From the NCBI GenBank assembly GCA_027923505.1, contig BROI01000001.1, positions 1,674,001-1,738,000 of the forward strand: a stretch of DNA of 64,000 bases, given 5' to 3'. This stretch comes from Mayamaea pseudoterrestris (lineage: Eukaryota). The position numbers were made by a program, and so were the translations under genes. Under the pieces are notes generated by a model. That model did not search any database. It was not told the DNA's origin and saw only the letters and a list, made by a program, of their open reading frames with translations. Positions 4,100 to 26,516 of this stretch are shown piece by piece (positions within the stretch are counted from its first letter, which is position 1; the number at the start of each line of letters is the position of its first letter).

Positions 4100-4428
4100 T
4101 GACACGATAATATCAGACGAACCTTTATTCCAGCGACTACAATGGACTAGGAGCGATCAACCTCTTCGTCCAGCGTAAAGCAAACAAACAAACTCAATTG
4201 CTAGAATAGTGCATGTTACTCGCTACTCTACTCGTGCGCTTCTTTCTCGTTCTCACTGGGTTCACGGTCGAGGTTCACGCCTCGATCGTCAGCGATTTCA
4301 CTCATGTATGTGAGGATTCGGTCACAAGTGTGACTCAACCCTGCACAGGATTAAATGCATACAAAACACAGGTAGCTAACCGTCTTGTCATAAGACGCAG
4401 GTCAACTCAACTCAATAATATTGTGTCA
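4100..4428 (-). repeat. Family-1 3' LTR (329 bp, TGACAC...GTGTCA)
   Basis: Near-identical to 11346-11674, 15340-15668 and 58969-59297. Has 6-bp terminal inverted repeats and an adjacent polypurine tract GATCAAGGGGGA on the minus strand. Confidence 0.95.
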
Positions 4429-4439
4429 TCCCCCTTGAT

Positions 4440-5027
4440 CTAGGCTTGTGACAACGATCGGTTTGCCGTATCACCCTTCCAGAAAAGAATCGGAATGATC
4501 AGGGGTCGGAACGTGGCATGTGGCAAGAACTTGGTAAGAACGTCGGCGACGTTCTGCTTGCCGAAGATGTGCTCAAAGTACAGAACATTGCTTGCAATGG
4601 CCTCGCGAACTCGGTGGTAGGCGAGCGCATTGTGTCGCTTAGAAAGTGTGGAGTGTGGGATCGTTGACGACTTCTTGACACCTTCGTTGTCGCCGAACAT
4701 CCAGGCTGGTCCACTCAAAGGAACTCCCAACATCCGTAGGGAGTACCGGAAATCCATAATCTGTTCCGTCGCGGTCTTGGCGACGACGAACTCGGATCCA
4801 TACGTTGCAGTCTCAACAGTATTCTGACGCTTGCAGAACCATTCGACGGGCGTCTGGTTCAGGAAATGCAGGACTCCCATTGCGGAACGTCCAGTAGTGT
4901 AATCATGGTACAGGTTCGCGTCCATAAAGGTAGTTAGTTGCACAGGCTTGCCCTTCGGGATCGGCATGTTCCACGGAAGCTCTTCGCTTGAGTTGCCGTA
5001 GACCGATTGCAACCAATCATACTGCAC
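4440..5027 (-). CDS. Copia RNase H (C-terminus of Pol)
   Basis: Motifs FMDANLYHD..TGRS, ETATYGSEF, GDN, KRHNALAYHRVRE and NVADVLTK. The stop codon abuts the PPT. Confidence 0.92.
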   Translation of the reverse strand: MQYDWLQSVYGNSSEELPWNMPIPKGKPVQLTTFMDANLYHDYTTGRSAMGVLHFLNQTPVEWFCKRQNTVETATYGSEFVVAKTATEQIMDFRYSLRMLGVPLSGPAWMFGDNEGVKKSSTIPHSTLSKRHNALAYHRVREAIASNVLYFEHIFGKQNVADVLTKFLPHATFRPLIIPILFWKGDTANRSLSQA

Positions 5028-5441
5028 TGGCAGTTCGGTAGGTCAAGTTTGGGTTCCCCGTGCGGATCGACGAGCAGATGTCAAGGACACAAGTCTTCGC
5101 CATGGAGAACATGCTGTAATTGAAGGCGCGCGGTCAGGCCGAGTGAAGGCTTGTGGATCTTTGGGGTTGCTGGAAATGGCAACACTTGCAGCAGATGGCT
5201 CTTATGTGACTCATGTCCACACATGGCATTTAGCTACTGTAACCACTTGGATGGCTCATTTTGTATGTGTGCGGCAAACACATATGTGACAGCCTCCAAC
5301 TATAAATTTTTTATGGCAGTCGTATGAACCTTGGACACATTATATACTACAACCTTTTCATGCTTAATAAATAAATCCATTACATGGTCTGGAATACATT
5401 ATTTCCCATCCATTCACTCACCATTTGTGAAGCTTGCAGCA

Positions 5442-6394
5442 CTACATATTATTGTAATTTACATTAAACAAGGGCTCACCATTCTCAATTGCAAGCTGAG
5501 TGACTACGGCAACAGCACGGAACATTGAAGATTGCTTTGACGGATCATGCCGAAAGACTTGCTTCAAGCAGCCCCATTGCTTAAAACGCTTGTTCACGGT
5601 TTCATGCCTCGCCTGCACTCGCTTGATCAAGGAAACACGCGCAGCGCCTTCAGCAAACCGATGCGGTGCAACCACAAACTGAGGACACTCTCCAGCATAT
5701 CCATCATCAGCCTCCACCCGTTCACCTTGGCTCAGCATTCCCTTCAAAGCCTGGCGGAAAATCTTGATGTCGGGCCATTCACCACAAGGAAACGGTCCAG
5801 AAATCCACACAATATGACCTGTAAGAATGCAAAGCGCAACTTCCCAGCACAGGCCTGGCCCATTAAATTTATGGGAGTACCACCCTGTCCAAAATGGCTG
5901 AAACTGTTGAATGCGAAAGTCAGTGCCATCCACTGAAACAAGGCAATCATTTCCAACGTCATTTTGAAGGCGGTTTTCCCAAAGAATCTGTGGAGCAGCA
6001 TGGCAATAACAGCATGAGAATTGAAAGAAACAAGTAGACAAATTGGAGCTTTACCAGCCAAACGTACAACTTGATTCTCCAAGAATGAGATTTGATCAAT
6101 GAATAGCCAGCTCCACTTGGAGAAGGTTTTTTCATCGACTCCGCCAGCCAAGGAGACTATTGCACGCTCAGGGAGATAGAGTTTCATATGCATCAAGCCC
6201 CACAACAAATGCTTTGGTTTGGCTCTCTTGTTTATAAACCTTTCAGGTTCAAGTTTGGCCCAAAGGATGCTGCAAATTGCAGGCGTGGTTCCGAATGTTG
6301 AGCGGAAGCGTTGGTCAGTTTGGCCAGTGACGCGGTGGCCATGGCGCGTCATTATTTCATTGCCAATGCCAACAAAATGCTCTAAAGGAACCAT
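5442..6394 (-). CDS. Harbinger/IS5-family DDE transposase; two exons (6394-6068, 5987-5442), 290 aa
   Basis: An 80-nt intron GTACGT...CCACAG (6067-5988) joins the frames with no stops. Motifs VSVDGTDF, WYSHKFNGPG, GPFPCGEWPD, VEADDGY and ARHETVNKRFK. Confidence 0.9.
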
Positions 6395-7213: not shown

Positions 7214-8376
7214 ATGCCTGCTGGGCGCTGGCAATCAAAGGTTGAAGGAGCTAATCTTTGTGCATTGTTTGATCGGAAGGAAGCTGACCCACACAAGGCA
7301 GACGACACAAACTACATCCACCAAGTCCAGCAGCTCAACAGTCGGCTCTTTGGTCACGTTGAACCCCGCAATTGGCTCAGCAACTACCGGCGCACGGCGC
7401 GAGATTATTTAACAAACAAGCAAGCTCAAGGAGGTCGTCGTCAATCTCTGCCGCCTCCAGTTCTGCCTCCCGGCCATCTTCAACCAAGTGCGCCAGGTAA
7501 GTCGCGACTTGCGAAACATCAAAGTGTCATTTTCAAGCACTCACTCATATTACTTTCTCCATTTCTGCAGACGAGTCAGAAGACGAGTTGTACACCTTGG
7601 CTAGCGACCCGACGGAAGAATTGACGCAGTTTGAAGAAATCGACAGCCAAGAAATCAACAGCATTCTTGGTAGTACCATCATGTCTCATTACAAGCCTTC
7701 CCACAAGCAAGCAGCATGCACCAATGGAACCTTCTACAAGCTCATTTGTGGCCCTTTCACTAATGAGAAAGGAGACGAAGAAATGACCGTTCGGCTGCTT
7801 GCCAACTCTGGCATTGAACCCAAGCATGTACAAGTTCAGCTTTCCAAGGATCATCGCTCATTGCTTGTTTTGCAGCGCGTGCCTAATGAGTTTTTTGACG
7901 CCCAACGCGTTGCAGATGAATCCTTTGGGCCTTGTGCATTGAGTTCCGCGGAGACGGCTGCTTTCCAGCGTGCTGTGCAACAAGTTCGGGCCACCGACAA
8001 GGAATCAGTCTATGTCGGCAGCAGCGACTACATTGACCTCGGACGCAAGGTGGAGCCATTGGCGGAAGGTGCCGTTGAGATTGTAGTTTTGCCAACCGAT
8101 AACGGAAGTGCTTTTCGCTGCATCAAAGTACGCCTCCAGCTGCCACGAACTGGGTACAAGACGCCAAGAGCTCCAACAGTGCGGGTTGTTCAACCGTATA
8201 ACCAGCCAATGCCACCGCTACCTCCAGTGCAAGGAGACGAAGCTGCGCAAGCAGCTCCAAGAGGAGTTGGTTTTGCAATTGAACAAGTGTTGAATTTGGC
8301 TGCTGCAGCTTTTATACTTGCTCTGTCATTTTATTTTGCGTTCTTGGGCAGCTCTGGTTGGCTGCGCTTACTGTAA
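7214..8376 (+). CDS. Harbinger accessory protein (ORF2); two exons (7214-7496, 7571-8376), 362 aa
   Basis: A 74-nt intron GTAAGT...CTGCAG (7497-7570, phase 1) joins the two ORFs in frame. The gene lies inside the TIRs, divergent from the transposase. It has a helical N-terminus, a beta-rich middle and a hydrophobic C-terminal tail. Confidence 0.82.
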
Positions 8377-8495
8377 AGATGTTTTTAATCTAAACACTGA
8401 TAGTTTGTATATGTTAACTATCCTCTTTACTTTAAAATATGCCAGCAGTAACTTAAGTTTATCTTGTGACACGTGATTCACTTTCCGGCAACCCC

Positions 8496-9340
8496 TTTCA
8501 TGGCCATAGCCAGATTGTCGACGAACACGCCGACGTACTCGTAGTGAGTGCCACAGTCTTTCATCCAGACGTCAGGATCCGCGTAGCTTGGGTAGAATCC
8601 AATGTCGCGGAGTGTGTCGGCAAAGTGCTCATGCCAACGCGCGCCAGAAGTGCGCAATCCGTAAAGTGCCTTGTAGATGACCAAGGTATGGCCTTCCAAT
8701 GGTCCAAACTCGGGACCGGCAACAATGTAGACCTTTTCCTTGGTCTTGGCCTCGAGGTAGGCGTTACCGACATCGGCAGCCCAAAACTTGAGGTCGTTCA
8801 GTTCAGCTAACAGTGCTATGGTTCGAATGCTTCGCATAGATACAACGCCGGAGTAGGCGGAGTCCTTGGGCGGAGCGGTCAGATGTCCCCCGGCGACGAG
8901 TCGGGCCTTACGTCGTAGATCGTTCTTGCAGTCGAAAACAAGATGCGCGTTGATGCGCTTCCAGTCACTTTCCATGAAGGCACCGATGCCCTTGTCGATG
9001 AAAGTGTCGTACTCGTGTAGCTGCTCCATCTCAGTCTTGACGGCGTCAGCCCACAGGGTGTTTCCATTAGCAGCGTCGAGGCGGTTCGCTTCCTTCCAGG
9101 TATTAGGAACTTGAACGCCAAACTTGAAACGCGCTTCTTGGACACGGTTCTTCTTTGCAGCCTTGCACATGCGGTTAAACAATTTAGTGCGTCCTGCCAT
9201 GCGCTTCAAGCGCTTCCATCCATCCTTGTCCAGCATGCCCTTGCGCTTGCCATACTTGGCGACGGTCACAGGGTCGGACTTGATGATCAATGCGAGTGGC
9301 TCCCAGGTCTTCTCGCCATTTGCCCATTGGATGAGCAAGT
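8496..9340 (-). pseudogene. Copia reverse transcriptase fragment (copy A)
   Basis: Motifs KARLVAGGH, ADVGNAYL and KALYGLRTSGARW. The catalytic motif reads FVDN here but FVDD in copy C. Confidence 0.9.
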
Positions 9341-11331
9341 TGTAGGATGAGCCGCGATACGTAGCGTCGGCTTGTGTCAGTGGACCTTCATGTCCGTCAA
9401 TGAAATCAAACTTGTAGTACTGGTCGTCATTGTCACGTCCCGCCGGTAGGTAATCTTGCCGCTCGCACAGGTCGGCTAGTTCGTTGTAGGTTATAAGCTC
9501 ATCGACGTCGCGTCAGCCGTGACTCAATCGAACTTGATGATCTTGTGGTTGACTTCATCGCGATCGTTGTTGCTCGAGTAACCTTTGTAACGTCGCGTGG
9601 CAGCCGTCTTCCTCGTCCAAGAAGGACCCAGTGCGCCTCCCATCAGTTCAGCCCGGAGGACGGCATGGGTCGTCGGGGATCCAGACCGCTCTTCGGCAGA
9701 AGCGCTTTCCATGATCGTCTTCATCCACGGTTCCCCCAGAATCGGGCGCTGGGGGTCGGTGTGGTCGTGTTCAAACACCGGAGCGGCTAGATCCTCGAAT
9801 GAAGTCTTCGAGCGCCTTGGGCATGTCACTCTCGGTTCTCAGTGGGTATCCCCTCGTCAGCAGACTCTTCTTGCCAACGAACAGTTGCATCATCTTGCAT
9901 CCGCCATGGCCGCGGATTCCGTCGTTAAAGGCGGCTTCCTTGGAAAACCAGGTATCTGTCGCCGTATCGTCATGGAAACGAACCACATTGGCGGCAGGGA
10001 ATCGCGACTTAAAGTGTTGGCGAAATGGGGTGTGTGCCGATGCACGGAAAAGCTGTGTCGTATTCTTAATGGTGCGCTTGACTCGTTCGAGTGGCGTGTA
10101 GCCAAGGTAGGGTCGAAGCGCTTGGTAGTCAGGTTCTTGTGGCATTATGCGTCGTGCATTGGCTTGGCGCGTCGTATCAGCCTGATTGCGATCGACATAC
10201 TGCACCACACGTTCCACTGAGTTCATTGTTGTTTCGGTAGGTGGCGTCGCCAGAAGTCATCCATGCGGCGTCGACGGCCGTGTTCTTCTTCCAATTCGTC
10301 GAGCGGCGATTAAACTCAAGTTCTTCTTCGTTCCATTCATTATCCGCTCCGCTCCGGATCCCAAGGGGTGTCCGCACAGAAAATGACCGTCGGATACATT
10401 TCAACTGCGTCCGTCGGCGGACATATCCATACGAGGCAAGCCGTCACGGATCGCCAAGGGGATGGACTGCCACAACTGGTGCAATGGCTTGTGCTCCATT
10501 CTGGGAGCGAGCTGGCGTATTCGTCCTCGTTAAGTCGGCCGAGTTGTTAAATGCGACATGTACGACCAAAGTTACAGCAACTGTTCAAAGTTCAGATAAT
10601 CACCAGGGATCGTTCCCGATGCCTTGCGTACCGGCTGCTGGGAGTGGCGGAAAGGCCTCGTCCTCCCGCTTGTATCTCGCTTCGTCTTGAGGTTCGCCGC
10701 CTTGTCTTCTCTTTTCGGCCTTCTCGGCCTTCATTCTCATTTTCAGTTCTTGCAGCTCGGCTTGCTTCTTCTTGGCTCGAGGACATAGTTCCTTCTTCCG
10801 CTTCGCGTTCTTTTCGCGCCAACTTGTATCGCTCCTTGCCTAAATCAAGCGCCCCCTTCGTGGGGTGTGCTGGTAAACCATTCGCTGCATCGAGGACAAG
10901 GTTCGCGTAACTGGTTGTGTGGGCGCCTCGCTTCCGCCTGTCGGTTGCGCGCCTTCGGGTTGTCCGCCAGCTTGCTTGCCCAGTAGGGGGCTTCAAGTTG
11001 CTCCTTGGTCAATCTCAACATCTGGGTAGTGGTGGTTACATTCCAAAACAAGAACGCTTCTTGGATGTCTCGTCCGAAAACGTTCGTGCAGAGAAGCTGC
11101 AAAGCTTCCGCAGTAATCGCAACCATGATAGTGAATACCTCGCTTTCCGCAAGTCCTTTCTTACACAACAACCGCTCTCAATGCAGTCGAGCTTTATACG
11201 ATCCTGTTCTACGCGCTCGTGCCAAGTATTCGGATTGACGACGCCGCAAGGAATCTGCTCTTTCTCTCTCAATTTCTCGATTCATTTACTCTCTCTCTTT
11301 CGCACAGCTCTCTCAGGTCAAGACAAGCTAG

Positions 11332-11345
11332 CAAGACTGTTAATC
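11332..11345 (-). promoter_or_regulatory. Primer-binding site GATTAACAGTCTTG (family 1)
   Basis: Immediately internal to the 5' LTR. The same 14-mer abuts the different family-2 LTR at 19709-19722. Confidence 0.8.
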
Positions 11346-11674
11346 TGACACGATAATATCAGACGAACCTTTATTCCAGCGACTACAATGGACTCGGAGC
11401 GATCAACCTCTTCGTCCAGCGTAAAGCAAACAAACAAACTCAATTGCTAGAATAGTGCATGTTACTCGCTACTCTACTCGTGCGCTTCTTTCTCGTTCTC
11501 ACTGGGTTCACGGTCGAGGTTCACGCCTCGATCGTCAGCGATTTTACTCATGTATGTGAGGATTCGGTCACAAGTGTGACTCAACCCTGCACAGGATTAA
11601 ATGCATACAAAACACAGGTAGCTAACCGTCTTGTCATGAGACGCAGGTCAACTCAACTCAATAATATTGTGTCA
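11346..11674 (-). repeat. Family-1 5' LTR
   Basis: 329-bp LTR copy with the PBS on its internal side and satellite on its external side. Confidence 0.95.
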
Positions 11675-14600
11675 CCATGTATACACCCAAATGACACCAG
11701 AATGGTGCCATGATCATTATTCAAATTGCGCTACAAGATGGTATGCCTAGCTATTGTCTCAGGGGACAGCAATGATATTGGTGACAACTTGTCACCAGTC
11801 TCAGCCTGCAGATGCCGTGACATTCAAACGCCCCTACAGCAGGCCATGTATACAACCAAATAACACCAGAATGGTGCCAACATCATTATTCAGGCTGCGC
11901 TACAAAATGGTATGCCTGGATATTGTCTCAGGGGATGGCAATGATATTGGTGACAACTTGTCACCAGTCTCAGCCCACAGATGCTGTGACATTCAAACGC
12001 CCCTACCGTACAGCAGGCCATGTATACACCCAAATGACACCAGAATGGTGCCATGATCATTATACAAACTGCGCCACAAGATGGTATGCCTAGCTATTGT
12101 CTCAGGGGACAGCAATGATATTGGTAACAACTTGTCACCAGTCTCAGCCCGCGGATGCCGTGACATTCAAACGCCCCTAGAACAGGCCATGAGTATACCC
12201 AAATGACACCAGAATGGTGCCAACATCATTATTCAGGCTGCGCTACAAGATAGTATGCCTGGCTAGTGTCTCAGGGGATGGCAATGATATTGGTGACAAC
12301 TTGTCACCAGTCTCAGCCTGCAGATGCCGTGACATTCAAACACCCCTACAGCAGGCCATGTATACACCCAAATGACACCAGAATGGCGCCAACATCATTA
12401 TTGAAATTGCGCTACAAGATGGTATGCCTGGCTAGTGTCTCAGGGGACGGCAATGATATTGGTGACAACTTGTCACCAGTCTCAGCCTGCAGATGCCGTG
12501 ACATTCAAACGCCCCTACAGCAGGCCATGTATACACCCAAATGACACCAGAATGGTGCCAACATCATTATTCAGGCTGCGCAACAAGATGGTATGCATGG
12601 CTAGTGTCTCAGGGGACGGCAATGATATTGGTGACAACTTGTCACCAGTCTCAGCCTGCAGATGCCGTGACATTCAAACGCCCCTACAGCAGGCCCTGTA
12701 GGTGCCCAAAATACACCAGAATGGTGCCAACATCATTATTCAGGCTGCGCTACAAGATTATATGCCTGGCTAGTGTCTCAGGGGATGGCAATGATATTGG
12801 CGACAACTTGTCACCAGTCTCAGCCCGCAGATGCCGTGACATTCAAACGCCCCTACAGCAAGCCCTGTAGGTGCCCAAAATAAACCAGAATGGTGCCAAC
12901 ATCATTATTCAGGCTGCGCTACAAGATGGTATGCCTGGCTAGTGTCTCAGGGGACGGATGATTGGTGACAACTTGTCACCAGTCTCAGCCTGCAGATGCC
13001 GTGACATTCAAATGCCCCTACAGCAGGCCATGTATACACCCAAATGACACCAGAATGGTGCCAACATCATTATTCAGGCTGCGCTACAAGATGGTATGCC
13101 TGGCTAGTGTCTCAGGGGATGGCAATGATATTGGTGACAACTTGTCACCAGTCTCAGCCCGCAGATGCCATGACAATCAAATGCCCCTACAGCAGGCCAT
13201 GTATACACCCAAATGACACCAGAATGGTGCCAACATCATTATTCAGGCTGCGCAACAAGATGGTATGCCTGGCTAGTGTCTCAGGGGACGGCAATGATAT
13301 TGGTGACAACTTGTCACCAGTCTCAGCCTGCAGATGCCAAACATTCAAACGCCCCTACCGTACAGCAGGCCATGTATACACCCAAATGACACCAGAATGG
13401 TGCCATGATCATTATACAAACTGCGCCACAAGATGGTATGCCTAGCTATTGTCTCAGGGGACAGCAATGATATTGGTAACAACTTGTCACCAGTCTCAGC
13501 CCGCGGATGCCGTGACATTCAAACGCCCCTAGAACAGGCCATGAGTATACCCAAATGACACCAGAATGGTGCCAACATCATTATTCAGGCTGCGCTACAA
13601 GATAGTATGCCTGGCTAGTGTCTCAGGGGATGGCAATGATATTGGTGACAACTTGTCACCAGTCTCAGCCTGCAGATGCCGTGACATTCAAACACCCCTA
13701 CAGCAGGCCATGTATACACCCAAATGACACCAGAATGGCGCCAACATCATTATTGAAATTGCGCTACAAGATGGTATGCCTGGCTAGTGTCTCAGGGGAC
13801 GGCAATGATATTGGTGACAACTTGTCACCAGTCTCAGCCTGCAGATGCCGTGACATTCAAACGCCCCTACAGCAGGCCATGTATACACCCAAATGACACC
13901 AGAATGGTGCCAACATCATTATTCAGGCTGCGCAACAAGATGGTATGCATGGCTAGTGTCTCAGGGGACGGCAATGATATTGGTGACAACTTGTCACCAG
14001 TCTCAGCCTGCAGATGCCGTGACATTCAAACGCCCCTACAGCAGGCCCTGTAGGTGCCCAAAATACACCAGAATGGTGCCAACATCATTATTCAGGCTGC
14101 GCTACAAGATTATATGCCTGGCTAGTGTCTCAGGGGATGGCAATGATATTGGCGACAACTTGTCACCAGTCTCAGCCCGCAGATGCCGTGACATTCAAAC
14201 GCCCCTACAGCAAGCCCTGTAGGTGCCCAAAATAAACCAGAATGGTGCCAACATCATTATTCAGGCTGCGCTACAAGATGGTATGCCTGGCTAGTGTCTC
14301 AGGGGACGGTAATGATATTGGTGACAACTTGTCACCAGTCTCAGCCTGCAGATGCCGTGACATTCAAATGCCCCTACAGCAGGCCATGTATACACCCAAA
14401 TGACACCAGAATGGTGCCAACATCATTATTCAGGCTGCGCTACAAGATGGTATGCCTGGCTAGTGTCTCAGGGGATGGCAATGATATTGGTGACAACTTG
14501 TCACCAGTCTCAGCCCGCAGATGCCATGACAATCAAATGCCCCTACAGCAGGCCATGTATACACCCAAATGACACCAGAATGGTGCCAACATCATTATTC

Positions 14601-15339
14601 AGGCTGCGCAACAAGATGGTATGCCTGGCTAGTGTCTCAGGGGACGGCAATGATATTGGTGACAACTTGTCACCAGTCTCAGCCTGCAGCTGCCGTGACA
14701 TTCAAACGCCCCTACAGCAGGCCATGTATACACCCAAATGACACCAGAATGGTGCCAACATCATTATTCAGGCTGCGCAACAAGATGGTATGCCTGGCTA
14801 GTGTCTCAGGGGACAGCAATGATATTGGTGACAACTTGTCACCAGTCTCAGCCCGCAGATGCCGTGACATTCAAACGCCCCTACAGTAAGCCCTGTAGGT
14901 GCTCGAAATACATCAGAATGGTGCCAACATCATTATTCAGGCTGCGCTACAAGATGGTATACCTGGCTAGTGTCTCAGGGGATGGCAATGATATTGGTGA
15001 CAACTTGTCACCAGTCTCAGCCTGCAGATGCCGTGACATTTAAACGCCCCTACAGCAGGCCAGGTATATACCCAAATGTCACCAGAATATTGCCAATATC
15101 ATTATTCAAGCTGCCCTACAAGATGCAGAATGGTGCCAACATCATTATTCAGGCTGCGCTACAAGATGGTATACCTGGCTAGTGTCTCAGGGGATGGCAA
15201 TGATATTGGTGACAACTTGTCACCAGTCTCAGCCTGCAGATGCCGTGACATTTAAACGCCCCTACAGCAGGCCAGGTATATACCCAAATGTCACCAGAAT
15301 ATTGCCAATATCATTATTCAAGCTGCCCTACAAGATGGT
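11675..15339 (+). repeat. 169-bp tandem satellite array (~21-22 monomers) with an 8-mer higher-order repeat
   Basis: Period 169 (e.g. 12266 to 12435). Variant patterns recur at +1352/+1356 (12266 to 13618, 13044 to 14400). Each monomer carries the dyad TGGTGACAA-C-TTGTCACCA. Confidence 0.97.
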
Positions 15340-15668
15340 TGACACGATAATATCAGACGAACCTTTATTCCAGCGACTACAATGGACTAGGAGCGATCAA
15401 CCTCTTCGTCCAGCGTAAAGCAAACAAACAAACTCAATTGCTAGAATAGTGCATGTTACTTGCTACTCTACTTGTGCGCTTCTTTCTCGTTCTCACTGGG
15501 TTCACGGTCGAGGTTCACGCCTCGATCGTCAGCAATTTCACTCATGTATGTGAGGATTCGGTCACAAGTGTGACTCAACCCTGCACAGGATTAAATGCAT
15601 ACAAAACACAGGTAGCTAACCGTCTTGTCATGAGACGCAGGTCAACTCAACTCAATAATATTGTGTCA
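15340..15668 (-). repeat. Family-1 3' LTR
   Basis: 329-bp LTR copy followed by the PPT complement TCCCCCTTGATC. Confidence 0.95.
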
Positions 15669-16991
15669 TCCCCCTTGATCTAGGCTTGTGACAACGATCG
15701 GTTTGCCGTATCACCCTTCCAGAAAAGAATCGGAATGATCAGGGGTCGGAACGTGGCATGCGGCAAGAACTTGGTAAGAACGTCGGCGACGTTCTGCTTG
15801 CCGAAGATGTGCTCAAAGTACAGAACATTGCTTGCAATGGCCTCGCGAACTCGGTGGTAGGCGAGCGCATTGTGTCGCTTAGAAAGTGTGGAGTGCGGGA
15901 TCGTTGACGACTTCTTGACACTTTCGTTGTCACCGAACATCCAGGCTGGTCCTCTCAAAGGAACTCCCAACATGCGTAGGGAGTATCGGAAATCCATAAT
16001 CTGTTCCGTCGCGGTCTTGGCGACGATGAACTCGGATCCGTATGTTGCAGTCTCGACAGTATTCTGACGCTTGCAGAACCATTCGACGGGCGTCTGGTTC
16101 AGGAAATGCAGGACTCCCATTGCTCCAGTGTGTATCATGGTACGGTTCGCGTCCATAAAGGAGTTGCACAGGCTCTCTGGGCTCGGCTGTATTGGTGACA
16201 ATTGGTCCAGTCGTCAGCTTGCGCTTGCGCGTGGTTTCTCATAAACATGGTTTCGTATTCTTGAGCATCGGCCGACGTGAGTCTTCCGCTCATGCAGGGT
16301 TCCATCGGGATCATGATAGAAGTCGCCGGTGGTCTTGTCCCGGCCGCCCTTCACTTGTACTTGTACTTGTCCTTGAGGAGGTGGAAGGCTTTGGATCTTT
16401 CTGCACTAGCAGCCAGCGTGGACCGGTACTCCCGGTTCCTCCGGGTCTGCCTTGTGGGTGCAGTCGGCCGCCCGCCAGAGTGCGCCAATCAAAAATCCTT
16501 GTAGATGACCAAGGTATGGCCTTCCAATGGTCCAAACTTCGGGACCGGCAACAATGTAGACCTTTTCCTTGGTCTTGGCCTCGGGTAGGCGTCCGGCATC
16601 GGCGGCCCAAACTTGGGTCGTTCGTTCAGCTACATTCCAGTTCGCACGGCTGCAATCACCCTCTGTAGCTTCGGTTTCCGCGGGAGATCAGTCTTACCTT
16701 GGTTTATCCTACAGGGTCTTATCCTACAAAACGCTAGTTGATTAAGCAGTTCTCTAGAAAGTGAGTTGATTTACGATCGGCCTAAGAAAGAGCGCATTGA
16801 TCAGATGGCTCTTTTCAAGACCATTCACGTATAGTGAATACTAATCTTATTTAATCGTGCCTGCGGCTGGTGATTTCAATGACAGTTGTGAGCAGATGTC
16901 TTTTTCTGTACCGCAACGGAGGTTCGAGTACTATGTGTGCCCCCCGGCGACGCTAGGCTCACTGCGACTGGACTAGATCGTCATTGTGACA

Positions 16992-18385
16992 CCATCCCCT
17001 GAGACACCAGCCAAGCCTAACATTTCGTAACGCAGCCTGATTTATGATGTTGGCGCCATTCTGGTGTATTTTGGGCACCTACAGGGCTGTTGGGGTTTAA
17101 CGTTTCGTATTGAGACTGGAGTGTCACCAAATACATTGCCATCCCCTGAGACACCAGAAGTCACGAGCGCAGCTGTGATGTTGGCACCATTCTGGTTGGA
17201 CTACAGGGCCGCTGTAGGGTGTTTGAATGCTCACATTCTTGGGCTGAGACGCGAGTTGTCACCACAACACATTGCCATCCACTGACACACAGCCAAGCTA
17301 CCATCTTGTGCGCAGCTGAAAATGGGCACCATTCTGGTTTTGGAGCTACAGGGTTGCTGTAGGACATTTGAATGTCACGGCATCTGGGGGCTGGAGGTGA
17401 AGTTGTCACCAAATGCATTGCATAGAACTCCATGCCAATCATCTTGTAGCGCAGCTGATTTGTTGGCATTGTGTTGGGCATCTATAGGGCTTGCTCTAGG
17501 GATTTGAAAACGAATCTGGCGGCTGAGAGGTGACAAGTTGTCACAATAATTGCATCTGAGACACCAGCTTCTACCATCTTGTAGCGCAGCCCGAATAAGC
17601 GAGATGTTGGCACCGTTCTGAGTATTTTGGCACCACAGGGTTGCTGTAGGGCGTTTGAATGTCATGGCATCTGCGGCTGAGACTGGTGACGTTGTCACAA
17701 CACATTGCTATCCTGAGACACCAGCCAAGCTACCATCTTGTAGCGCAGCCTAAACAAAAGATGTTGGCACCATTCTGAGTTTCCGGACCTACAGGGCTTG
17801 CTGTAGGGTGTTTGAATGTCACGCACGGTGAGACTGGTGACAAGTTGTCACCAAATACATTGCCATCCCCTGAGACACCAGTCAAGCCTTACCATCTTGT
17901 AGCGCAGCCTGATCAATGATGACACCATTCTAGAATATTTCGGGCACCTAGGGATTTGAATGTCACGATAGTGGGGCTGACACAAGTTGTCACAAAATAC
18001 ATTGCCATCCCCCCTGAGACACCAGCCAAGATTACCATCTTGTAGCGAGTGAAAAGATGTTGGCACCAATGCGTATTTTGGGCACCTACAGGGTTGCTGT
18101 AGGGTGTTTCTGGAATGTCACGGCATAGATAGATCAGTGACAAATTGTCACCAAATACATTGCCATCCCTGAGACACCAGCCAAGCCTACCATCGGCAGC
18201 TGAACAATGATGTGCTGGATATTCTGGTGTATTTTGGGCACTTACAGGGCTTCTGCTGTAGGGCGTTTGAAACGTCATGGCATCTATGGTTGAGACTGGT
18301 GATGTTGTCACCAAATACATTGCCATCCCCTGAGACACCAGCCAAGCCTACCATCTCAGTAGCGCAGCTTGAATAATGATGTGGA
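16992..18385 (-). repeat. Inverted, divergent array of the 169-bp satellite (~8-9 indel-rich monomers)
   Basis: Reverse-complement monomer motifs such as TTGCCATCCCCTGAGACAC, GGTGACAAGTTGTCACC and CCATCTTGTAGCGCAGC. Confidence 0.9.
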
Positions 18386-18601
18386 TTGGTGGATCTTCAT
18401 TTGGCGTTGCGTGCCGCTTTGCGTCGTCGGTATAGCGGCGGAGCGATGAGCTGCTTGCGACTCTTTCGAAGCTTTGGTTTATTGGCGCGTTGAGGATACC
18501 TCGCCGAACTGATTTCTTGGCAAGCGTCGTTCCACGCGAACGATTCGGACAACCACTTTCTTGCAGCGGTCGCGTCGGGGACTGTTTCGCCGGTTATAAT
18601 C

Positions 18602-19474
18602 TTAGACAAGCGTTCTCCCATTGAGAACCACGCAGTTTGTGCTGCCGTGGTCGTTCGTCAGTTTCATGTCGCGAACTCTCGACTCGGCTCGCTGCGCTGC
18701 GCGCTCGGCGTTCTTGCCCGTCAAGTACATCTTGTGCATTTCCTTGAAGCACTCGTGGGCCGACCCGTCCTTGTGGCAACGAATGATCGGGATGCAGTTG
18801 GCGACTTTGCAGTATGAAGTGATGATGTCGAATGCTGTGGCTTCTTGCGCTTTGAATACCTCGAGATCTTCGTGCGAAAGCGTTGTCGGGTTGAAATCCG
18901 GATCGAAGACTCGCTCGATGCCTTGGTTCTTGGCCGTTGCGAACGTCTTGAGCCACCATTGACGGAATTTGTACTCGTCTTTGAACTCGGTGTATGCCTT
19001 GGTGTCGACTCGGATGCGAGCTTTGTACTTCTCGGCCTCAGACTTCTCTGGAACGTCCGTGGAGTTGACTCGTTGAATCCGACTCATGTGGCTTTGGAAT
19101 AGAGACTCTTCGGGCGATTCGGTCGCTTTGATGAGCGCTGCGAATGTGAGCGTCACCCATTCCTTGAGTTTGCGCTCCTCCGATGCCCATTGACGAAGGC
19201 GGGTAATGGTTCGAATAACCGTGATGTGCGTTTTGGATTCCTTCAGTACCGACTCGATGTCCTTGATGGTCAGCATTAGGAATGGCTCCGTGAGTAGGCG
19301 TCCGTCCGGGAGGAGTGACTTGATGGCGACGATGACTGGAAGCTTCATGAACTTGTCGTTGTTGACGGTCTTCAGCTTGTAAATGCTTTTCAATCCGACG
19401 GCGAGCGAGTTGTCTTCCGCGTCATCTTGCGTGACATTGGGTCCGTCGGGAGGATCATCTTCGACGACGGTCAT
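18602..19474 (-). CDS. Family-2 Gag (N-terminal part, frameshifted downstream)
   Basis: RVDTKAYTEFKD..FRQW..TFATAKNQGIERVFDPDFNP aligns with family-1 Gag KRDYKDYKTF..WLSW..TKAIAKLHGCSNVLDSKYVP. It lies just inside the PBS/LTR. Confidence 0.8.
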   Translation of the reverse strand: MTVVEDDPPDGPNVTQDDAEDNSLAVGLKSIYKLKTVNNDKFMKLPVIVAIKSLLPDGRLLTEPFLMLTIKDIESVLKESKTHITVIRTITRLRQWASEERKLKEWVTLTFAALIKATESPEESLFQSHMSRIQRVNSTDVPEKSEAEKYKARIRVDTKAYTEFKDEYKFRQWWLKTFATAKNQGIERVFDPDFNPTTLSHEDLEVFKAQEATAFDIITSYCKVANCIPIIRCHKDGSAHECFKEMHKMYLTGKNAERAAQRAESRVRDMKLTNDHGSTNCVVLNGRTLV

Positions 19475-19722
19475 GTTGTTGATTGATTGGTACGGGATGA
19501 ATATATACCGCGAGAATAATCGAGGAAGTCGATTCTATCCGAGCGATGTTTGCAATTCGACTCGGTCTTCAATCCCTCCGTCTGCCGGACTAGTGTAGAT
19601 TGAAGCCTCGGACAGGAAATGAACGAGGGATGTCCGCTGCCAATGTAGTGTGCAACGAAACGACGGGAGTGGTCATCACCAGCGCCCGAGAGAGTTGATT
19701 GTAAAGACCAAGACTGTTAATC

Positions 19723-20123
19723 TGACACGATGCAGTTCCAGTTTGTACGGCTGCAACGATTCCTCACCCTCTGTAGTCGGTTTCCAAGTGAGCGGGATGA
19801 TCAGTCCTTTACCTTGGTTTATCCTACAGGGGTCTTATCCTACAAAACGCTAGTTGATTAAGCAGTTCTCTAGAAAGTGAGTTGATTTACGATCGGTCGA
19901 GAAAGAGCGATTGATCAGATGGCTCTTTCAAGACCATTCACGATAGTGAATACTAATCTTGTTTAATCGTGCCTGCGGCTGGCACACATGCAATATTTCA
20001 ATGACGTAGTTGTGAGTAGATGTCTTTTCTGGTACCGCAACGGAGGTTCGAGTACTATGCTCATGCGCCCCCGACGACGTCTAGGTTCGCATCAAGCGAC
20101 TGGACTAGATCGTCATTGTGACA
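19723..20123 (-). repeat. Family-2 5' LTR (401 bp)
   Basis: TG...CA ends, adjacent PBS, and a second copy at ~16633-16991. Confidence 0.88.
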
Positions 20124-22085
20124 AGCTAACAGTGCTATGGTTCGAATGCTTCGCATAGAGACAACACCGGAGTAGGCGGAGTCCTTGGGCGGAGCGGTCA
20201 AATGTCCCCCGGCGACGAGTCGGGCCTTACGTCGTAGATCGTTCTTGCAGTCGAAAACAAGATGCGCGTTGATGCGCTTCCAGTCACTTTCCATGAAGGC
20301 ACCGATGCCCTTGTCGATGAAAGTGTCGTACTCGTGTAGCTGCTCCATCTCAGTCTTGACGGCGTCAGCCCACAGGGTGTTTCCATTAGCAGCGTCGAGG
20401 CGGTTCGCTTCCTTCCAGGTATTAGGAACTTGAACGCCAAACTTGAAACGTGCTTCTTGGACACGGTTCTTCTTTGCAGCCTTGCACATGCGGTTAAACA
20501 GTTTAGTGCGTCCTGCCATGCGCCTCAAGCGCTTCCATCCATCCTTGTCCAGCATACCCTTGCGCTTGCCGTACTCGGCAACGGTAACAGGGTCGGACTT
20601 GATAATCAATGCGAGTGGCTCCCAGGTCTTCTCGCCATTTGCCCATTGGATGAGCAAGTTGTAGGATGAGCCGCGATACGTAGCGTCGGCTTGTGTCAGT
20701 GGACCTTCATGTCCGTCAATGAAATCAAATTTGATAATCTTGTGGTTGGCATCGTTGCAATCATTTAATTATTTGACAACCTTGTAACGTTGCGTTGAGC
20801 CATCTTCCTCATCAAGAAGGACAGTGCGTCCCATCAGTTCAGCCAGAGTAAAGGACGGCATGGGTCCGTCAGGATCCAGACCGGCTAACTTGGCAGCGCC
20901 TTCCAACAAAATGTGTCTTCATCCACGGTTCCCCCAGAATCAGGCGCTGGGGTCAGTGTCTGATTGTGCTTGAACACCAGACCGGCAAGGTCGTACTCAT
21001 CATCAAACTCATTTACAGTTTCCACTTTTACTCGTTCACGCGCAGGGCGTGCATCGAAGACAGGTTCAGCAAACAGTGGTCGCTCGGACTCAGGTTCAGG
21101 GGTGCATTCGGCCTTGGCACGTAAGTTACGTCCTTTGGAGAAGGGACAAACATTGGATCGGATGTCAACCAGTCCAGTTTGATTGGATTGGACTTGATAT
21201 GTGAGGATGTCACCCTTGTTCTCTGCAATGCCAACCCAGCGTCCTGCTGCTTCCTTTGTATGAGGAAATGTCGGCGTCTTGTTGGCTCCAGCCTTGTACA
21301 GGACTTGTTCCCAGACCTTGAACTGTAGGAACAGCGAAATGTTGGTTACTCGGTTAAATGCGGCTTCAGTTGGAGTCTTCCAGTTGAGGGACTTGGTCAC
21401 CAGATGGTTGAATAAGGCAATCACGTACAACGCGCACAGGAGCCAGGCTCCGGCGGGTGGACCCATATGGTTCATGATGTTCTGGATAGATGACTTGACT
21501 TCTTGGATGCGACGCTTGGCAGGGTTCTGGTTCTGGTATCTGGGCTTGTTCTGTTGGTCACGAATCATGTAGAATTGCAACAAGGTTTCAACTTGCTTCC
21601 CAAGCTGCACTTGCGAGTTATTGCTAATGAGCAAGTTGGGAGCGCCAATGTCTCGAATGAAGTCTTCAAGCGCCATGGGCATGTCACTCTTGGTTCTCAG
21701 TGGTATCCCTTCGTCAGCAAACTCTTCTTGCCGACAAACAATTGCATCATCTTGCATCCGCCATGGCCGCGGATTCCGTCATTAAAGGCGGCTTCCTTGG
21801 AAAACCAGGTGTCTGTCAGCGTATCGTCATGGAAACGAATCACGTTGGCAGTGGCAGCAGGGAATCATGACTTAAAGTGCTGGCAAAACGGGGTGTGTGT
21901 CAATGCACAAAAGTTCTGTGTCGTGTTCTTCAATGTGCGCTTGACTCGTTTGATTGGCATGTAGCCAAGGTATGGTCGGAGCGCTTGGTAGTCAGGCTCT
22001 TGCGGCATAATGCGTTGTGCATGGACTTGGTGCGTTGACTCTTCCTTATTGCGATCGACATACTGCACCACACGTTCCACTGAGT
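20124..22085 (-). pseudogene. Family-1 pol (RT N-terminus and integrase), disrupted
   Basis: Homologous to 60675-62770. It has a deletion near 20730, frameshifts and many CG>TG/CA changes (LLISNNS vs LLISDNS; NPAKRR vs NPAERR). Confidence 0.88.
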
Positions 22086-24167
22086 TCATGTTGTTCCGGT
22101 AGGTGGCGTTGCCGAAGTCATCCATGCGGGCGTCGACGAAACCATGTTCCTCTGCCAAGTCGTCAAAGCGATGATTAAACTCAAGTTCTTCTTCGTTCCA
22201 TTCATTATCCAACTCCGCCGGATCCCAAAGGGTGTCCGCAGAGAAAATGACCGTGACATTTCAACTCTATCGTCCGTGGGGACGTATGCCATACGAGGCA
22301 AGCCGTCACGGATCGCCAAGGGGATGGTCTTGCCACAACTGGTGACAATGGCTTGTGCTCCATTCTGGGAGTGAGCGACGTCGTCGATCAGATGGCCGAA
22401 CGAACGAAGCTGCGATGGAGCATGAATGGATTCAGCACCGTCGTACAAAGCATACTGGTTGAACTGACCAATAATGGGTCCAGTCCGAGTCTCAATCAAT
22501 GCGACGCCAGTTCCGACTTGGAGGTCGCGAACCGTGTGGTCGCTCAAACCTGTCACGTTACACGTGTGGTTGGTAGTACTCAAGATTCTCATATCGCTTC
22601 CAGCGAGTCCACCGTTCGCACCGCCGTCAATCAGCGATCCTTGGCGGGTCTCGTTGCTGCGAGCTCGATTCACAGTGTAGCGCACCGATACCATTGCGCG
22701 GTACCGACGGCCGTCGCTTCCCATAAACTCTTGCTGGGTGTTATTCGCAGCTTGAGTGCGAGACGACGCGGCGTTCGCAAGGAAAGATCTAATCATGTCA
22801 TCCGGTGCACCTTGAGTGGCTGTCGTCGGGGCGATCGAGACAGCGTCATTCTGATACAAGATTGTACCAGGCACCGAGGCAGCCGCTTGTGACTGCTGGT
22901 TATTCGCACGGTTGCCATTGTTCGCGCGTCTTGTAGTGGCGGGTCTTGGGACGGCTTCGCGTCGAGCCATGAGCTGAGCGTATTCGTCCTCGTTAAGTCG
23001 GCCGAGTCGTTCATACGACATGTACGACCAGGGGTTCTGCAACAACTGTTCAAAGTTCAGATAATCGCCAGGGAATCGTTCCCGATGCGCTTGCGTACCG
23101 GCTGCTGGTAGTGGCGCGGAAGAGCCTCGTCCTCCGGAACCGCGGCTCACTTGGGAACCGCGTCCACCGTCTCGTCCACCGCCGCGTCCGCCTTGGCCGC
23201 CGCGTCCTCCGCCGCGACCGGAACCGCGTCCATTACCACGTCCTTGCCCGGAAGTGTTCGCGTTGTTCGCTTGGCGGTCGGCGTTCTTCTTGCCCTTGTT
23301 CAGCTTGGCGTTCTTGTTGTCGACGCGCAGAGCCTGCTGCGACAACATGTCGAAAAGATAGTCATAATCTTCCGTTAAGACGGCATCTGGGTCACCGTTT
23401 GCGTTGATGATGCGTCGTCGTTCAAATAACAAGTGCTGGTCGAACGTCGTGCACGTGGGGCCGAATTCTTCGTCACCCTCCACTGCAGCTCGGAGCCAGT
23501 AGTACTTCTTCTTGTCATCCGTCACTCCAGGACGGAACTCTTCGAGATTCTTCATGAGCTGTTCGATGTAGTTTAGGAACTTGTAGTGCCCTTTCGTCCA
23601 GGTCGAATCTAGGCGAATCGTCGCAAGCTTGGCTTGCAGTTCGTTCGCTTGGATGGTAGCTAACTCGCCGGAACCAAACTTGGTCGCGAGTTCGCGATAG
23701 ACGCTCTGAGCGTCAGACTTGTCGCCGTACTTCATTAGGAGCGACTGGTATCCAGGGACTTCGAGACAATTGCGAAACGCAGTGTACATGAAGATTTGCT
23801 GATTCTCGAACTCTTCCTTCTCTTGTTCCGTGACTGGTACGTACTTGCTGTCGAGCACGTTAGAACAGCCATGGAGCTTGGCGATTGCCTTGGTAGACGC
23901 GCTCCAACTCAACCACGCGTGGGGATGTTGGAACGTTTTGTAGTCCTTGTAGTCTCGCTTCGTCTTGAGGTTCGAGAAACGACCCTTGGCATCTTCTTCC
24001 TTTTCGGCCTTCTCAGCCTTGATGGTCTCATTTTCGAGTTGCTTGGCAAGTAGCTCGGCTTGCTTCTTCTTGGACTCGAGGACGTAGCGTCCTTCTTCAC
24101 GCTTTCGACCGACTTCTTGTTCGGCGAGTTTCTCTTGGAATCGCTCGAGCTTGCCTAAATCAAGCAA
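22086..24167 (-). CDS. Family-1 Gag-protease portion of the polyprotein (5'-truncated)
   Basis: 693-aa ORF with a capsid-like helical region, an RGG-rich tract and the aspartic protease motif LIDGGANGG. Confidence 0.88.
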   Translation of the reverse strand: MLDLGKLERFQEKLAEQEVGRKREEGRYVLESKKKQAELLAKQLENETIKAEKAEKEEDAKGRFSNLKTKRDYKDYKTFQHPHAWLSWSASTKAIAKLHGCSNVLDSKYVPVTEQEKEEFENQQIFMYTAFRNCLEVPGYQSLLMKYGDKSDAQSVYRELATKFGSGELATIQANELQAKLATIRLDSTWTKGHYKFLNYIEQLMKNLEEFRPGVTDDKKKYYWLRAAVEGDEEFGPTCTTFDQHLLFERRRIINANGDPDAVLTEDYDYLFDMLSQQALRVDNKNAKLNKGKKNADRQANNANTSGQGRGNGRGSGRGGGRGGQGGRGGGRDGGRGSQVSRGSGGRGSSAPLPAAGTQAHRERFPGDYLNFEQLLQNPWSYMSYERLGRLNEDEYAQLMARREAVPRPATTRRANNGNRANNQQSQAAASVPGTILYQNDAVSIAPTTATQGAPDDMIRSFLANAASSRTQAANNTQQEFMGSDGRRYRAMVSVRYTVNRARSNETRQGSLIDGGANGGLAGSDMRILSTTNHTCNVTGLSDHTVRDLQVGTGVALIETRTGPIIGQFNQYALYDGAESIHAPSQLRSFGHLIDDVAHSQNGAQAIVTSCGKTIPLAIRDGLPRMAYVPTDDRVEMSRSFSLRTPFGIRRSWIMNGTKKNLSLIIALTTWQRNMVSSTPAWMTSATPPTGTT

Positions 24168-24168
24168 C

Positions 24169-26516
24169 GCGACAGAGGTTGTGACAGAGGACTGTTTGCA
24201 TACTCCGGTTTAGCTATGGACTCCAAACCATCTCAAGGATTAGACAATCCTCCCTTCTAAGCTCTCTACAACTCCAAGGGATACTTGAGAGCTGTAGCTC
24301 AGGTTTAGTAGCATAGCTGGCCTTGGGTAAATCTTCATATAAATATTCTTCTTTACCACCGTTCATCATCTCAATCTCTCACTCTGAATTCAGAAACTCA
24401 AGTGTTGGGTTGGAGAACGACAAGCACAAGAGGATCTCTTCACACAGTGCTAACAACAAAGCGGCTGATAGCCATTGTATTAATCAAATCATCCGTCCAA
24501 AAAAGGACAGGAAAGGACAAGCTCCTCAATCAACGAACGCCAACATGCGAAGCCCCCCATTTCACATACGAACATCATACAAAATGAATCACTAAACGAA
24601 CCAACCATGGCGAGGCCATCGCACAAAAGCAAACAAACTATTGAACAACAATGAACGGTGACACCATCGTACACAACTGACAATGGTGAGGCCATTGCAC
24701 ATCATACAACAACAATAGCAATTGAACAATCGCGACAAAAACCAACGACCAACGACTGATGGCGACGCCATCATACAAGAGCAAACGAACAACCAACAAT
24801 GGCGTTGCCATTGTACAAACGAAGAACAATCAAACGCGAATGGTGATACCATCACATGAACGAACAATGGCGACGCCATCATTGATCAGAACAACAATGA
24901 ATTACCTGTCGACTGGCGACGCCATCGAACAGCAACAACAACCGAAATGGCGATGCCATCATTACATCAACAATCAACAGCGCCATTGAACATGGAACAA
25001 GAAAAGAACTCAATTTGCTCTGATGAGCAGCAAAACTGAAACGACAAAGGCTGAAACGCCTCGACGTCAAATGAAATTGAATGCGCGATTGGAGACTCGC
25101 AGCGCTCACTGCGACGCCGTTGCAAAGCAACTAACAATAATTGCATAGCAGATGCTACACCCATAACAATAAACTGAACGGCGAGTTTTGACAGCATACC
25201 ACCACTGCAAGAAGCAGAAGAACAAACAAACGAATGATGCGCTGCATCCAATACACAACACTGTGAAGGGTCGCACACGACAAACATATAGAATACACAA
25301 GCAACGAGGTTCGCCACACAACAGCACACACACCACAAAGATATGTCGCCATTACAACAACAAACAAAGCTCAAACCAGCAGAAAGCAGGCACCTAAACC
25401 GAACCACAAACAATCATGACCAACCAGTGCATCAGATGAACTCTCCTGCATCGTCTCCGCCCTTCTTCTCTCGTGGAGGTGGAAGCCGTGGTTTCTTTGA
25501 CTCTAGGGGAAACAGATGAGTCAGAGGTTGCGCTCTATGAATTGGAATAACCGTATTACAGCATCTCCAGGTGAGAGATCAAATACATGAAGCAACACAC
25601 ATATCCAGCCAGCAAACCGCTCATCTCGTGCGAAGCATTGAATAAGACAAAGGTACAACTTGCAAAAGCAAGGCATAGCCATCAGCATGCACTGTAAGAG
25701 CTGAGGACGTATATAAAAGGCAAATCCAAACATAACAGCATGCTACGGCACAAATTCGCGAAACAAAACAAACCAGAAGGTACCGATACACCGCTCGAGC
25801 AGTACAGCCTATGCATTGCTACACAAGACATTTATTGCGCCGCAAACAACGCATCCCTTTGCCTTCCAACTGATATGTTGGCGAACAACATACATGAGTG
25901 AGGCTCTACCAATGGTCTACTGCCACAAAAGAGGCACACAAGCAGCTCTGCTTATAAAGGTTCACAGTCACAACAAGCACCACGTCATGCCATGGCATCT
26001 TAAACAATCATGCGCTCCTGCTTGGGAGTAAGGGGTTTCTGACTTTCCCTAGAATCTTCCTAAATACGGTTGTCAACCGTCGGCATTTTTTTTCCTTTTT
26101 TTACCCTCCTTGAGAAGGACATACCGCGTCTCCACATTCGAGATTACGGCCAATTTTTTTACCAAACTCTTTGAATCCAAGAATAACAGCGTGTCTGTCC
26201 CCAGGCAGTCTGCCACCTTTAGATTACAAAGATTTAAGGCTTGTTGAGCAAGAGAACCACAAGCGCTTCCTCTGTTGGGGGAGAGTGTTAGAACCGTACC
26301 GTTGCGACAGAGGTTGTGACAGAGGACTGTTCGCATACTCCGGTTTAGCTATGGACTCCAAACCATCTCCAGGATTAGACAATCCTCCCTTCAAAGCTCT
26401 CTACAACTCCAAGTGATACTTGAGAGCTGTAGCTCAGGTTTAGTAGCATAGCTGGCCTTGGGTAAATCATCATATAAATATTCTTCTTTACCACCATTCA
26501 TCATCTCGATCTCTCA
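24169..26516 (+). mobile_element. Non-coding LTR-like (TRIM/LARD-like) element with a truncated left repeat
   Basis: A 213-bp direct repeat at 24169-24381 and 26304-26516 ends in ...TCTCA and contains TATAAATA. The right copy may extend left to ~26040-26070, after a purine run GGGAGTAAGGGG. The interior is A/C-rich with no credible ORF. Confidence 0.6.
24600..24995 (+). repeat. Array of ~10 degenerate ATGGCG-A-CGCCAT palindromes in AAC-rich spacers
   Basis: Examples: ATGGCGAGGCCAT (~24607), ATGGCGACGCCAT (24759, ~24867), ATGGCGTTGCCAT (~24799), ATGGTGATACCAT (~24840), ATGGCGATGCCAT (~24947). Confidence 0.75.

Follow-up and report, generated by a model that had tools for sequence, protein, structure and literature searches.

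Half-tRNA priming of LTR retrotransposons has been known since the 1980s. In Drosophila copia and yeast Ty5, which belong to the ICTV genus Hemivirus together with Osser and 1731, the start of DNA synthesis is placed at nucleotide 40 of tRNA-iMet, in the anticodon stem-loop, whose 3'-OH serves as the primer end (PMC1181622), and for Ty5 the cut in the primer tRNA has been attributed to RNase P (PMC5371799). The primer-binding sites (PBS) of these Ty1/copia-type elements stand flush with the 5' LTR, have no TGG start and are complementary to an anticodon stem-loop (PMC1181622, PMC5371799). The elements that we describe here are the same in type, in the place of the site and in its start, and their site would likewise be complementary to an anticodon stem-loop of the host. 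The difference lies in the primer, which is the initiator Met in copia and Ty5 and would be Asn(GUU) in ours, known from sequence alone and from a host that is probably a diatom. The anticodon read from our site is GTT, not CAT, so that we consider these elements mechanistic relatives of copia and Ty5 and not members of the genus Hemivirus.

The primers of such systems need not be Met. In a survey of plant elements, half-tRNA-Met was inferred for Osser, Bryco and part of Gymco-II, and half-tRNA-Ile for Bianca (PMC6317226). These are, like ours, computationally inferred and lineage-typical half-tRNA sites; they differ in the tRNA and in the host kingdom, and tRNA-Asn enters that survey only via its 3' end, in 2% of the elements (PMC6317226). 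In fungi, the FunCo1 site ATTAAGAGTCT has been matched to an internal stretch of tRNA-Lys (PMC5445492). Ten of its 11 bases equal ATTAACAGTCT, and both sites target one portion of an anticodon arm of the AGACUNUUAAU type, but the fungal site has a G opposite anticodon position 34 where our site, which is 14 nt long, has a C, giving Lys(CUU) in one case and Asn(GUU) in the other. The Tf1/Sushi and plant TAR elements likewise have no site for a tRNA 3' end; they need a complementarity to the 5' end of the transcript that we did not find here. The first-pass annotation of this DNA had named copia and Ty5 with tRNA-iMet as the precedent. This stands but is too narrow, since non-Met half-tRNA sites (Ile, Lys) are already in print, which lowers the novelty of a tRNA-Asn case. 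A paper on diatom transposons contains no mention of tRNA (PMC2806351), and our search of the non-subscription literature found no half-tRNA-Asn primer site.

The stretch of DNA analysed here (64,000 nt in all, hereafter the window) contains two families of LTR elements in which one and the same 14-mer, CAAGACTGTTAATC, touches the LTR. We think it likely that this 14-mer is a PBS for half-tRNA priming by tRNA-Asn(GUU) in a Ty1/copia-type lineage, probably of a diatom.

The two LTR families

The features of both families are collected in Table 1. Their orientation is fixed because the RVT_2 match is on the minus strand, because the purine tracts lie beside the 3' LTRs and because family 2 has a 5-bp target site duplication (TSD) with empty sites available for comparison. 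Family 1 is a Ty1/copia-type LTR retrotransposon, represented by elements A, B and C. The structural marks of this type are present, with TG...CA LTR ends and purine tracts in both families and the 5-bp TSD in family 2. Element A runs, along the plus strand, from its 3' LTR through the internal part to the PBS and the 5' LTR. Its two LTRs are 99.1% identical, so that the site has been in use recently. A second, weaker RVT_2 match was found at 20061-20768(-). The Atlas clusters nearest to the element A reverse transcriptase (RT) occur most often in Bacillariophyta, which we take as a lead only, and the RT had no related locus in viral_contigs. The copies are decayed, and a Pfam search for integrase (rve) gave no match with the E limit raised to 5; in copy B, inspection by eye alone pointed to an integrase-like stretch that precedes the RT. 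A homology search with the 707-aa gag-protease ORF gave no homologue. Besides, none of the eight primers published for the Phaeodactylum elements Blackbeard, Surcouf and PtC34 (PMC2806351) has a place in the window at up to three mismatches, a result that is silent on the species.

Table 1. Coordinates and strand of the family 1 and family 2 features in the window.
Feature	Position	Strand	Remarks
3' LTR of element A	4100..4428	-	
Polypurine tract AAGGGGGA	4429..4436	-	Directly upstream of the element A 3' LTR; same in copies B and C
End of pol, element A	4440..5042	-	RNase H C-terminal part judged by eye; no Pfam match
Ty1/copia-type RT fragment, element A	8478..9512	-	RVT_2, E=1.5e-17, 64.5 bits vs cut-off 31.6
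PBS of element A	11332..11345	-	Directly after 5' LTR end ...ATCGTGTCA; reads GATTAACAGTCTTG; + strand reads as tRNA positions 27-40
5' LTR of element A (LTR1, 329 bp, TGACACAAT...ATCGTGTCA)	11346..11674	-	99.1% identical to 4100-4428
3' LTR of copy B	15340..15668	-	5' end of copy B missing from window
TSD AGCTA of family 2 element, left copy	16628..16632	.	
3' LTR of family 2 element	16633..16991	-	87.5% identical to 5' LTR (367 aligned columns)
PPT-like AGGGGATGG	16992..17000	-	Adjoins family 2 3' LTR
Gag-like ORF, family 2 (310 aa)	18602..19534	-	24% identity over 153 aa to family 1 gag region, E=4e-6 (pairwise)
PBS of family 2 element	19709..19722	-	Identical 14-mer
5' LTR of family 2 element (TGTCACAAT...CATCGTGTCA)	19723..20123	-	
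TSD AGCTA of family 2 element, right copy	20124..20128	.	
3' LTR of copy C	58969..59297	-	Copy C runs off window end

Element A is a deletion derivative relative to copies B and C. Between 5024 and 8494 it has ca. 3.5 kb unrelated to both, in place of ca. 470 bp of pol. This foreign segment has plus-strand ORFs, among them 7501-8376 (291 aa, no Pfam match), several TGACACG motifs and a weak, sub-threshold DDE_Tnp_1 match at 5442-6050(-) with E=0.027. The flanks of element A, ATCGT and CCATG, do not form a matching TSD. The homology of copy B to A stops at 24165, at the start of another small LTR element.

The family 2 element is 3.5 kb long (16633-20123) and is inserted in the RT of copy B of family 1. 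Copy B reads ...gttcagcta, then the insertion, then agcta acagtgc, whereas in A (8805-8809) and in C the unoccupied target has the sequence ...gttcagcta/acagtgc. The interior of the element consists of the 310-aa ORF and an array of ca. 169-bp repeats; the ORF has no Pfam match, and the resemblance of its product to the gag region of family 1 was detected pairwise. The copy has no RT and hence is non-autonomous. Of the "two copia families" originally proposed, family 1 stands with its RVT_2 domain, whereas family 2, at 24% identity in the gag-like ORF and without RT in this copy, is better called a non-autonomous relative. The family 2 3' LTR is short of its last ca. 10 nt (CATCGTGTCA), a loss that is flush with an intact target duplication and is odd for being so exactly terminal.

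The shared LTR-PBS junction

The 14-mer has exactly two perfect matches in the 64-kb window, both on the plus strand and each abutting an LTR, one of family 1 and the other of family 2, as the first-pass annotation had stated; no third copy was found on either strand with up to two mismatches allowed. Shuffled sequences gave, at up to two mismatches, a mean of 0.37 matches, and 4 of 100 shuffles had two or more, a control that is weak if taken alone. Direct reading of the sequence extends the identity common to both places to 23 nt, CAAGACTGTTAATC followed by TGACACGAT, and by our own arithmetic an exact pair of 23-mers would be expected by chance about 3e-5 times in 64 kb. The second part, TGACACGAT, is the 9-nt LTR terminus, which opens the family 1 LTR (plus strand) at 4100, 11346, 15340 and 58969. 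At three of these four starts the left flanks are unrelated, which means that the repeat ends exactly at TGACACGAT and that the 14-mer lies outside the LTR and touches it; at its other end the family 1 LTR identity stops at ...TTGTGTCA. We had also considered the 14-mer as a part of U5, which was ruled out by the three 3' LTR copies that stop exactly at TGACACGAT with unrelated flanks. Both elements are on the minus strand, so that the LTRs abutting the 14-mer are 5' LTRs. In element orientation the site therefore reads GATTAACAGTCTTG immediately after ...ATCGTGTCA in both families, and beyond it, on the internal side, the two sequences differ. Only two LTR-PBS junctions are open to inspection, as the 5' end of copy B is gone and copy C extends beyond the window. 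In both families GTCTT(G), with which the site closes, is repeated just past the PBS (11290-11331; 19700-19708), as GTCTTG, 7 nt and GTCTTG in family 1 and as GTCTTG with GTCTT at once after it in family 2. This recurrence could be a second contact with a tRNA stem strand or a trace of slippage.

The 14-mer is a real feature and probably a functional one. Apart from their 9-nt termini the LTRs of the two families cannot be aligned, and the gag regions are only 24% identical, whereas the 14-mer and these termini are identical; an island of 23 bases made of the U5 end and the adjoining site is what a shared integrase and shared priming would conserve. The same island could have come from a recent exchange of the U5-PBS region between the families, by template switching or gene conversion and not by long-term selection, as a perfect identity of 23 nt with an abrupt drop on either side might suggest and as co-packaged autonomous and non-autonomous elements can recombine. 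We find this quite improbable: the family 2 LTRs are only 87.5% identical, which marks an old copy, yet its site is intact, and the other LTR ends (TGTCACAAT vs TGACACAAT) and the purine tracts are also alike, as fits a shared machinery. Such an event would in any case leave the function of the site unchanged.

In both families the site, directly after the 5' LTR, does not begin with TGG, as had been noted at the outset. A site for a tRNA 3' end placed a few bases downstream was tried and rejected, as a TGG is found there in family 2 only, overlapping the end of the 14-mer, and is absent from family 1. A site with no TGG start is also what self-priming would leave, as in Tf1 and the plant TAR elements, in which the site anneals to the start of the RNA of the element itself, and self-priming is known in some Ty1/copia lineages (PMC6317226). 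Here, however, uninterrupted Watson-Crick pairing of the site with an LTR extends over 6 nt at best for either family, a length equalled in 154 of 300 shuffles for the family 1 LTR and in 163 of 300 for that of family 2, and with G-U pairs allowed the best runs of 8 and 7 nt are matched in 102 and 224 of 300 shuffles. No start of a transcript was found that could pair with the site over 10 nt or more, and the window has no additional copy of the 14-mer, on either strand and at up to two mismatches, to set beside the PBS. Self-priming, which had been put forward as the alternative that would overturn the tRNA reading, thus finds no support, and we give it next to no credence.

Correspondence with tRNA-Asn

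Read on the plus strand as tRNA positions 27-40, the 14-mer opens with five stem nucleotides (27-31), continues through the loop C-U-GUU-A-A (32-38) and ends two bases into the 3' strand of the stem (39-40). We completed it to an arm of 17 nt, which was scanned in metagenome contigs and found at 120 loci at least, and ARAGORN was run on the loci listed. Among the matches listed, the 17-mer is the anticodon arm of a called tRNA in 61 of 120 loci, 59 of them called as tRNA-Asn(gtt) and two being miscalled variants. Another four listed loci look tRNA-like by eye, and the remainder are scattered matches in other sequence. The listed tRNA-Asn genes with this arm are diverse, some having an encoded CCA and a bacterial or phage-like look and some having G1-C72 without CCA. 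The 17-nt arm is a real and recurrent arm of tRNA-Asn, and the PBS is a perfect complement to positions 27-40 of a natural tRNA-Asn(gtt) in 59 of the 120 listed loci, which agrees with the reading first given to it. In the contigs L011, L019, L020 and L068 the tRNA-Asn(gtt) lies at about 274-348 and has the T loop ATCGAAA, a form known from eukaryotic initiator tRNAs, and then a run of T.

The window itself has no tRNA gene detectable by ARAGORN. For the host we turned to sequencing runs, of which three (X1-X3) contain 78-95% of the words sampled from one part of the window, and aligned the contigs of X1-X4 to a metagenomic tRNA-Asn (L071:250-364) at 80% likeness. X1, X2 and X3 each gave a contig of a first type (418, 418 and 458 nt) that covers L071 281-337, that is, tRNA positions 7-63 with the whole arm included, and agrees with it at 54 of 57 positions without gaps. 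One of the three differences is demanded by T-stem pairing and the other two could fall in the arm. Beyond the aligned part, the six 5' bases together with position 7 complete a perfect 7-bp acceptor stem from G1-C72, the discriminator is G and the trailer is TTTT. This contig is a bona fide nuclear-type tRNA gene. For comparison, among the 46 non-Asn tRNAs of the listed loci no match to the L071 core exceeds 38/57, and the best other Asn reaches 53/57; with 54/57 set against 38/57, the gene is most simply the host tRNA-Asn, as far as sequence likeness can tell. The host gene thus comes close to the expected tRNA-Asn, with 54/57 over a core that spans the arm, but two of the differences could lie within the arm, so that a letter-perfect host arm is likely at most.

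A contig of a second type, also present in X1-X3 (86, 86 and 333 nt), matches positions 8-48 (D arm, anticodon arm and variable loop) at 37/41 and has the discriminator A. Its acceptor stem, T arm and discriminator differ, making it another host tRNA. Two or more tRNAs of the host are therefore much alike around the anticodon arm; run X4 had no contig matching the tRNA-Asn of L071. The 37/41 match means that such anticodon arms may be common to several host tRNAs, so that a primer other than Asn is possible, for example a fragment of tRNA-Lys(CUU), which would have a single mismatch at position 34. Along these lines, the FunCo1 site ATTAAGAGTCT and the corresponding 11 nt of ours, ATTAACAGTCT, are just one base apart (PMC5445492). 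However, the C of our site pairs Watson-Crick with G34 of tRNA-Asn, whereas C34 of tRNA-Lys would give a C-C mismatch; this C is kept in both families, and the better host match, the one with discriminator G, is to tRNA-Asn. We therefore judge a primer of this other kind very improbable.

It could also be that the likeness to tRNA-Asn is partial or due to chance, the stem of the host tRNA-Asn being different and the 14-mer binding another primer or serving packaging or dimerisation. A 14-mer alone carries few tRNA-specific constraints, the shuffle control is weak and two of the three differences in the host contig could lie in the arm. We nevertheless hold this to be unlikely, given that 59 of 120 listed loci have the completed arm in an actual tRNA-Asn, that a host tRNA gene matches such a tRNA-Asn at 54/57 across the arm and that the site is flush with U5, the usual place of a primer site, and stops opposite nucleotide 40, just like the sites already described.

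In the mechanism that we favour, half-tRNA priming by tRNA-Asn(GUU), the 14-mer would pair with the host tRNA along the 5' side of the anticodon stem, through all of the loop and two bases into the 3' side, and the predicted tRNA-Asn stretch at positions 27-40 would be CAAGACUGUUAAUC. Since priming requires a 3'-OH, the expected primer is the 5' portion of a tRNA-Asn that has been cleaved behind nucleotide 40. This 40-nt fragment would anneal to the 14-nt site and, by analogy with the described systems, prime minus-strand strong-stop DNA; the cleavage, the enzyme and the use of the fragment in particles are also taken over from that analogy and remain conditional on it. G26 is usually dimethylated in eukaryotic tRNAs, and m1A58 stops the copying of full-length primers. 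If plus-strand copying of the primer halted at a modified G26, this may be why the pairing begins at 27, and the length of the site would be set at 14 nt. As tRNA-Asn normally carries modifications at positions 34 and 37, the pairing could be hindered, and the same applies to the known iMet cases. The other end of the site is opposite nucleotide 40, the position of the published 3'-OH of half-tRNA primers (PMC1181622).

If this is correct, asparagine tRNA would join Met, Ile and the internal Lys site among the few tRNAs used as half-molecule primers, and half-tRNA priming would take in a lineage that is probably of diatoms. The advance is modest and no surprise, the mechanism being long known. 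It has a practical side, because the standard LTR annotation tools seek complements of tRNA 3' ends and would report these elements without a primer site, while with a known site intact copies are easier to find, and non-autonomous elements can be grouped with the autonomous ones on which they rely. The reading also suggests a concrete small RNA, the 40-nt 5' fragment of tRNA-Asn. In Phaeodactylum, fragments of ca. 19 nt match the "D loop and anticodon" of nine tRNAs, among which Asn is not named in the text (PMC4247016). The tie between retrotransposition and tRNA-fragment production that the first-pass annotation proposed would be a speculative further step. One might go further and suppose that a whole diatom copia clade, autonomous and dependent non-autonomous elements alike, is primed by a tRNA-Asn 5' fragment cut after nucleotide 40, and that the supply of this fragment, varying with stress-dependent tRNA cleavage or with tRNA modification state, gates bursts of retrotransposition. 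We regard this extension as rather unlikely; if true, it would tie genome change in diatoms to nutrient stress and to tRNA fragments.

Other repeats in the window

Several other repeats accompany these elements. The ca. 169-bp unit forms a tandem array of about 21 copies that fills 11675-15339, between the 5' LTR of element A and the 3' LTR of copy B, and a diverged array of the same unit (about 74-78% identical) is found inverted inside family 2 at 16992-18382, between the gag-like ORF and the 3' LTR. This satellite may have been spread or seeded by the family 2 element. A segment of 9.57 kb with few long ORFs is present twice in direct tandem (37046-46612 and 46609-56175) at 99.96% identity, and the pair could be a very recent duplication or an artefact of assembly.

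A third, small LTR element at 24167-26516, with LTRs of ca. 215 bp (24167-24381 and 26302-26516, 96.7% identical), truncates copy B on its 5' side. At a distance of two bases from one of the LTR ends of this element there is a 12-nt palindrome, TCTGAATTCAGA, which recalls the "conserved hairpin site" described as replacing the primer site in the fungal GalEa elements (PMC5445492).
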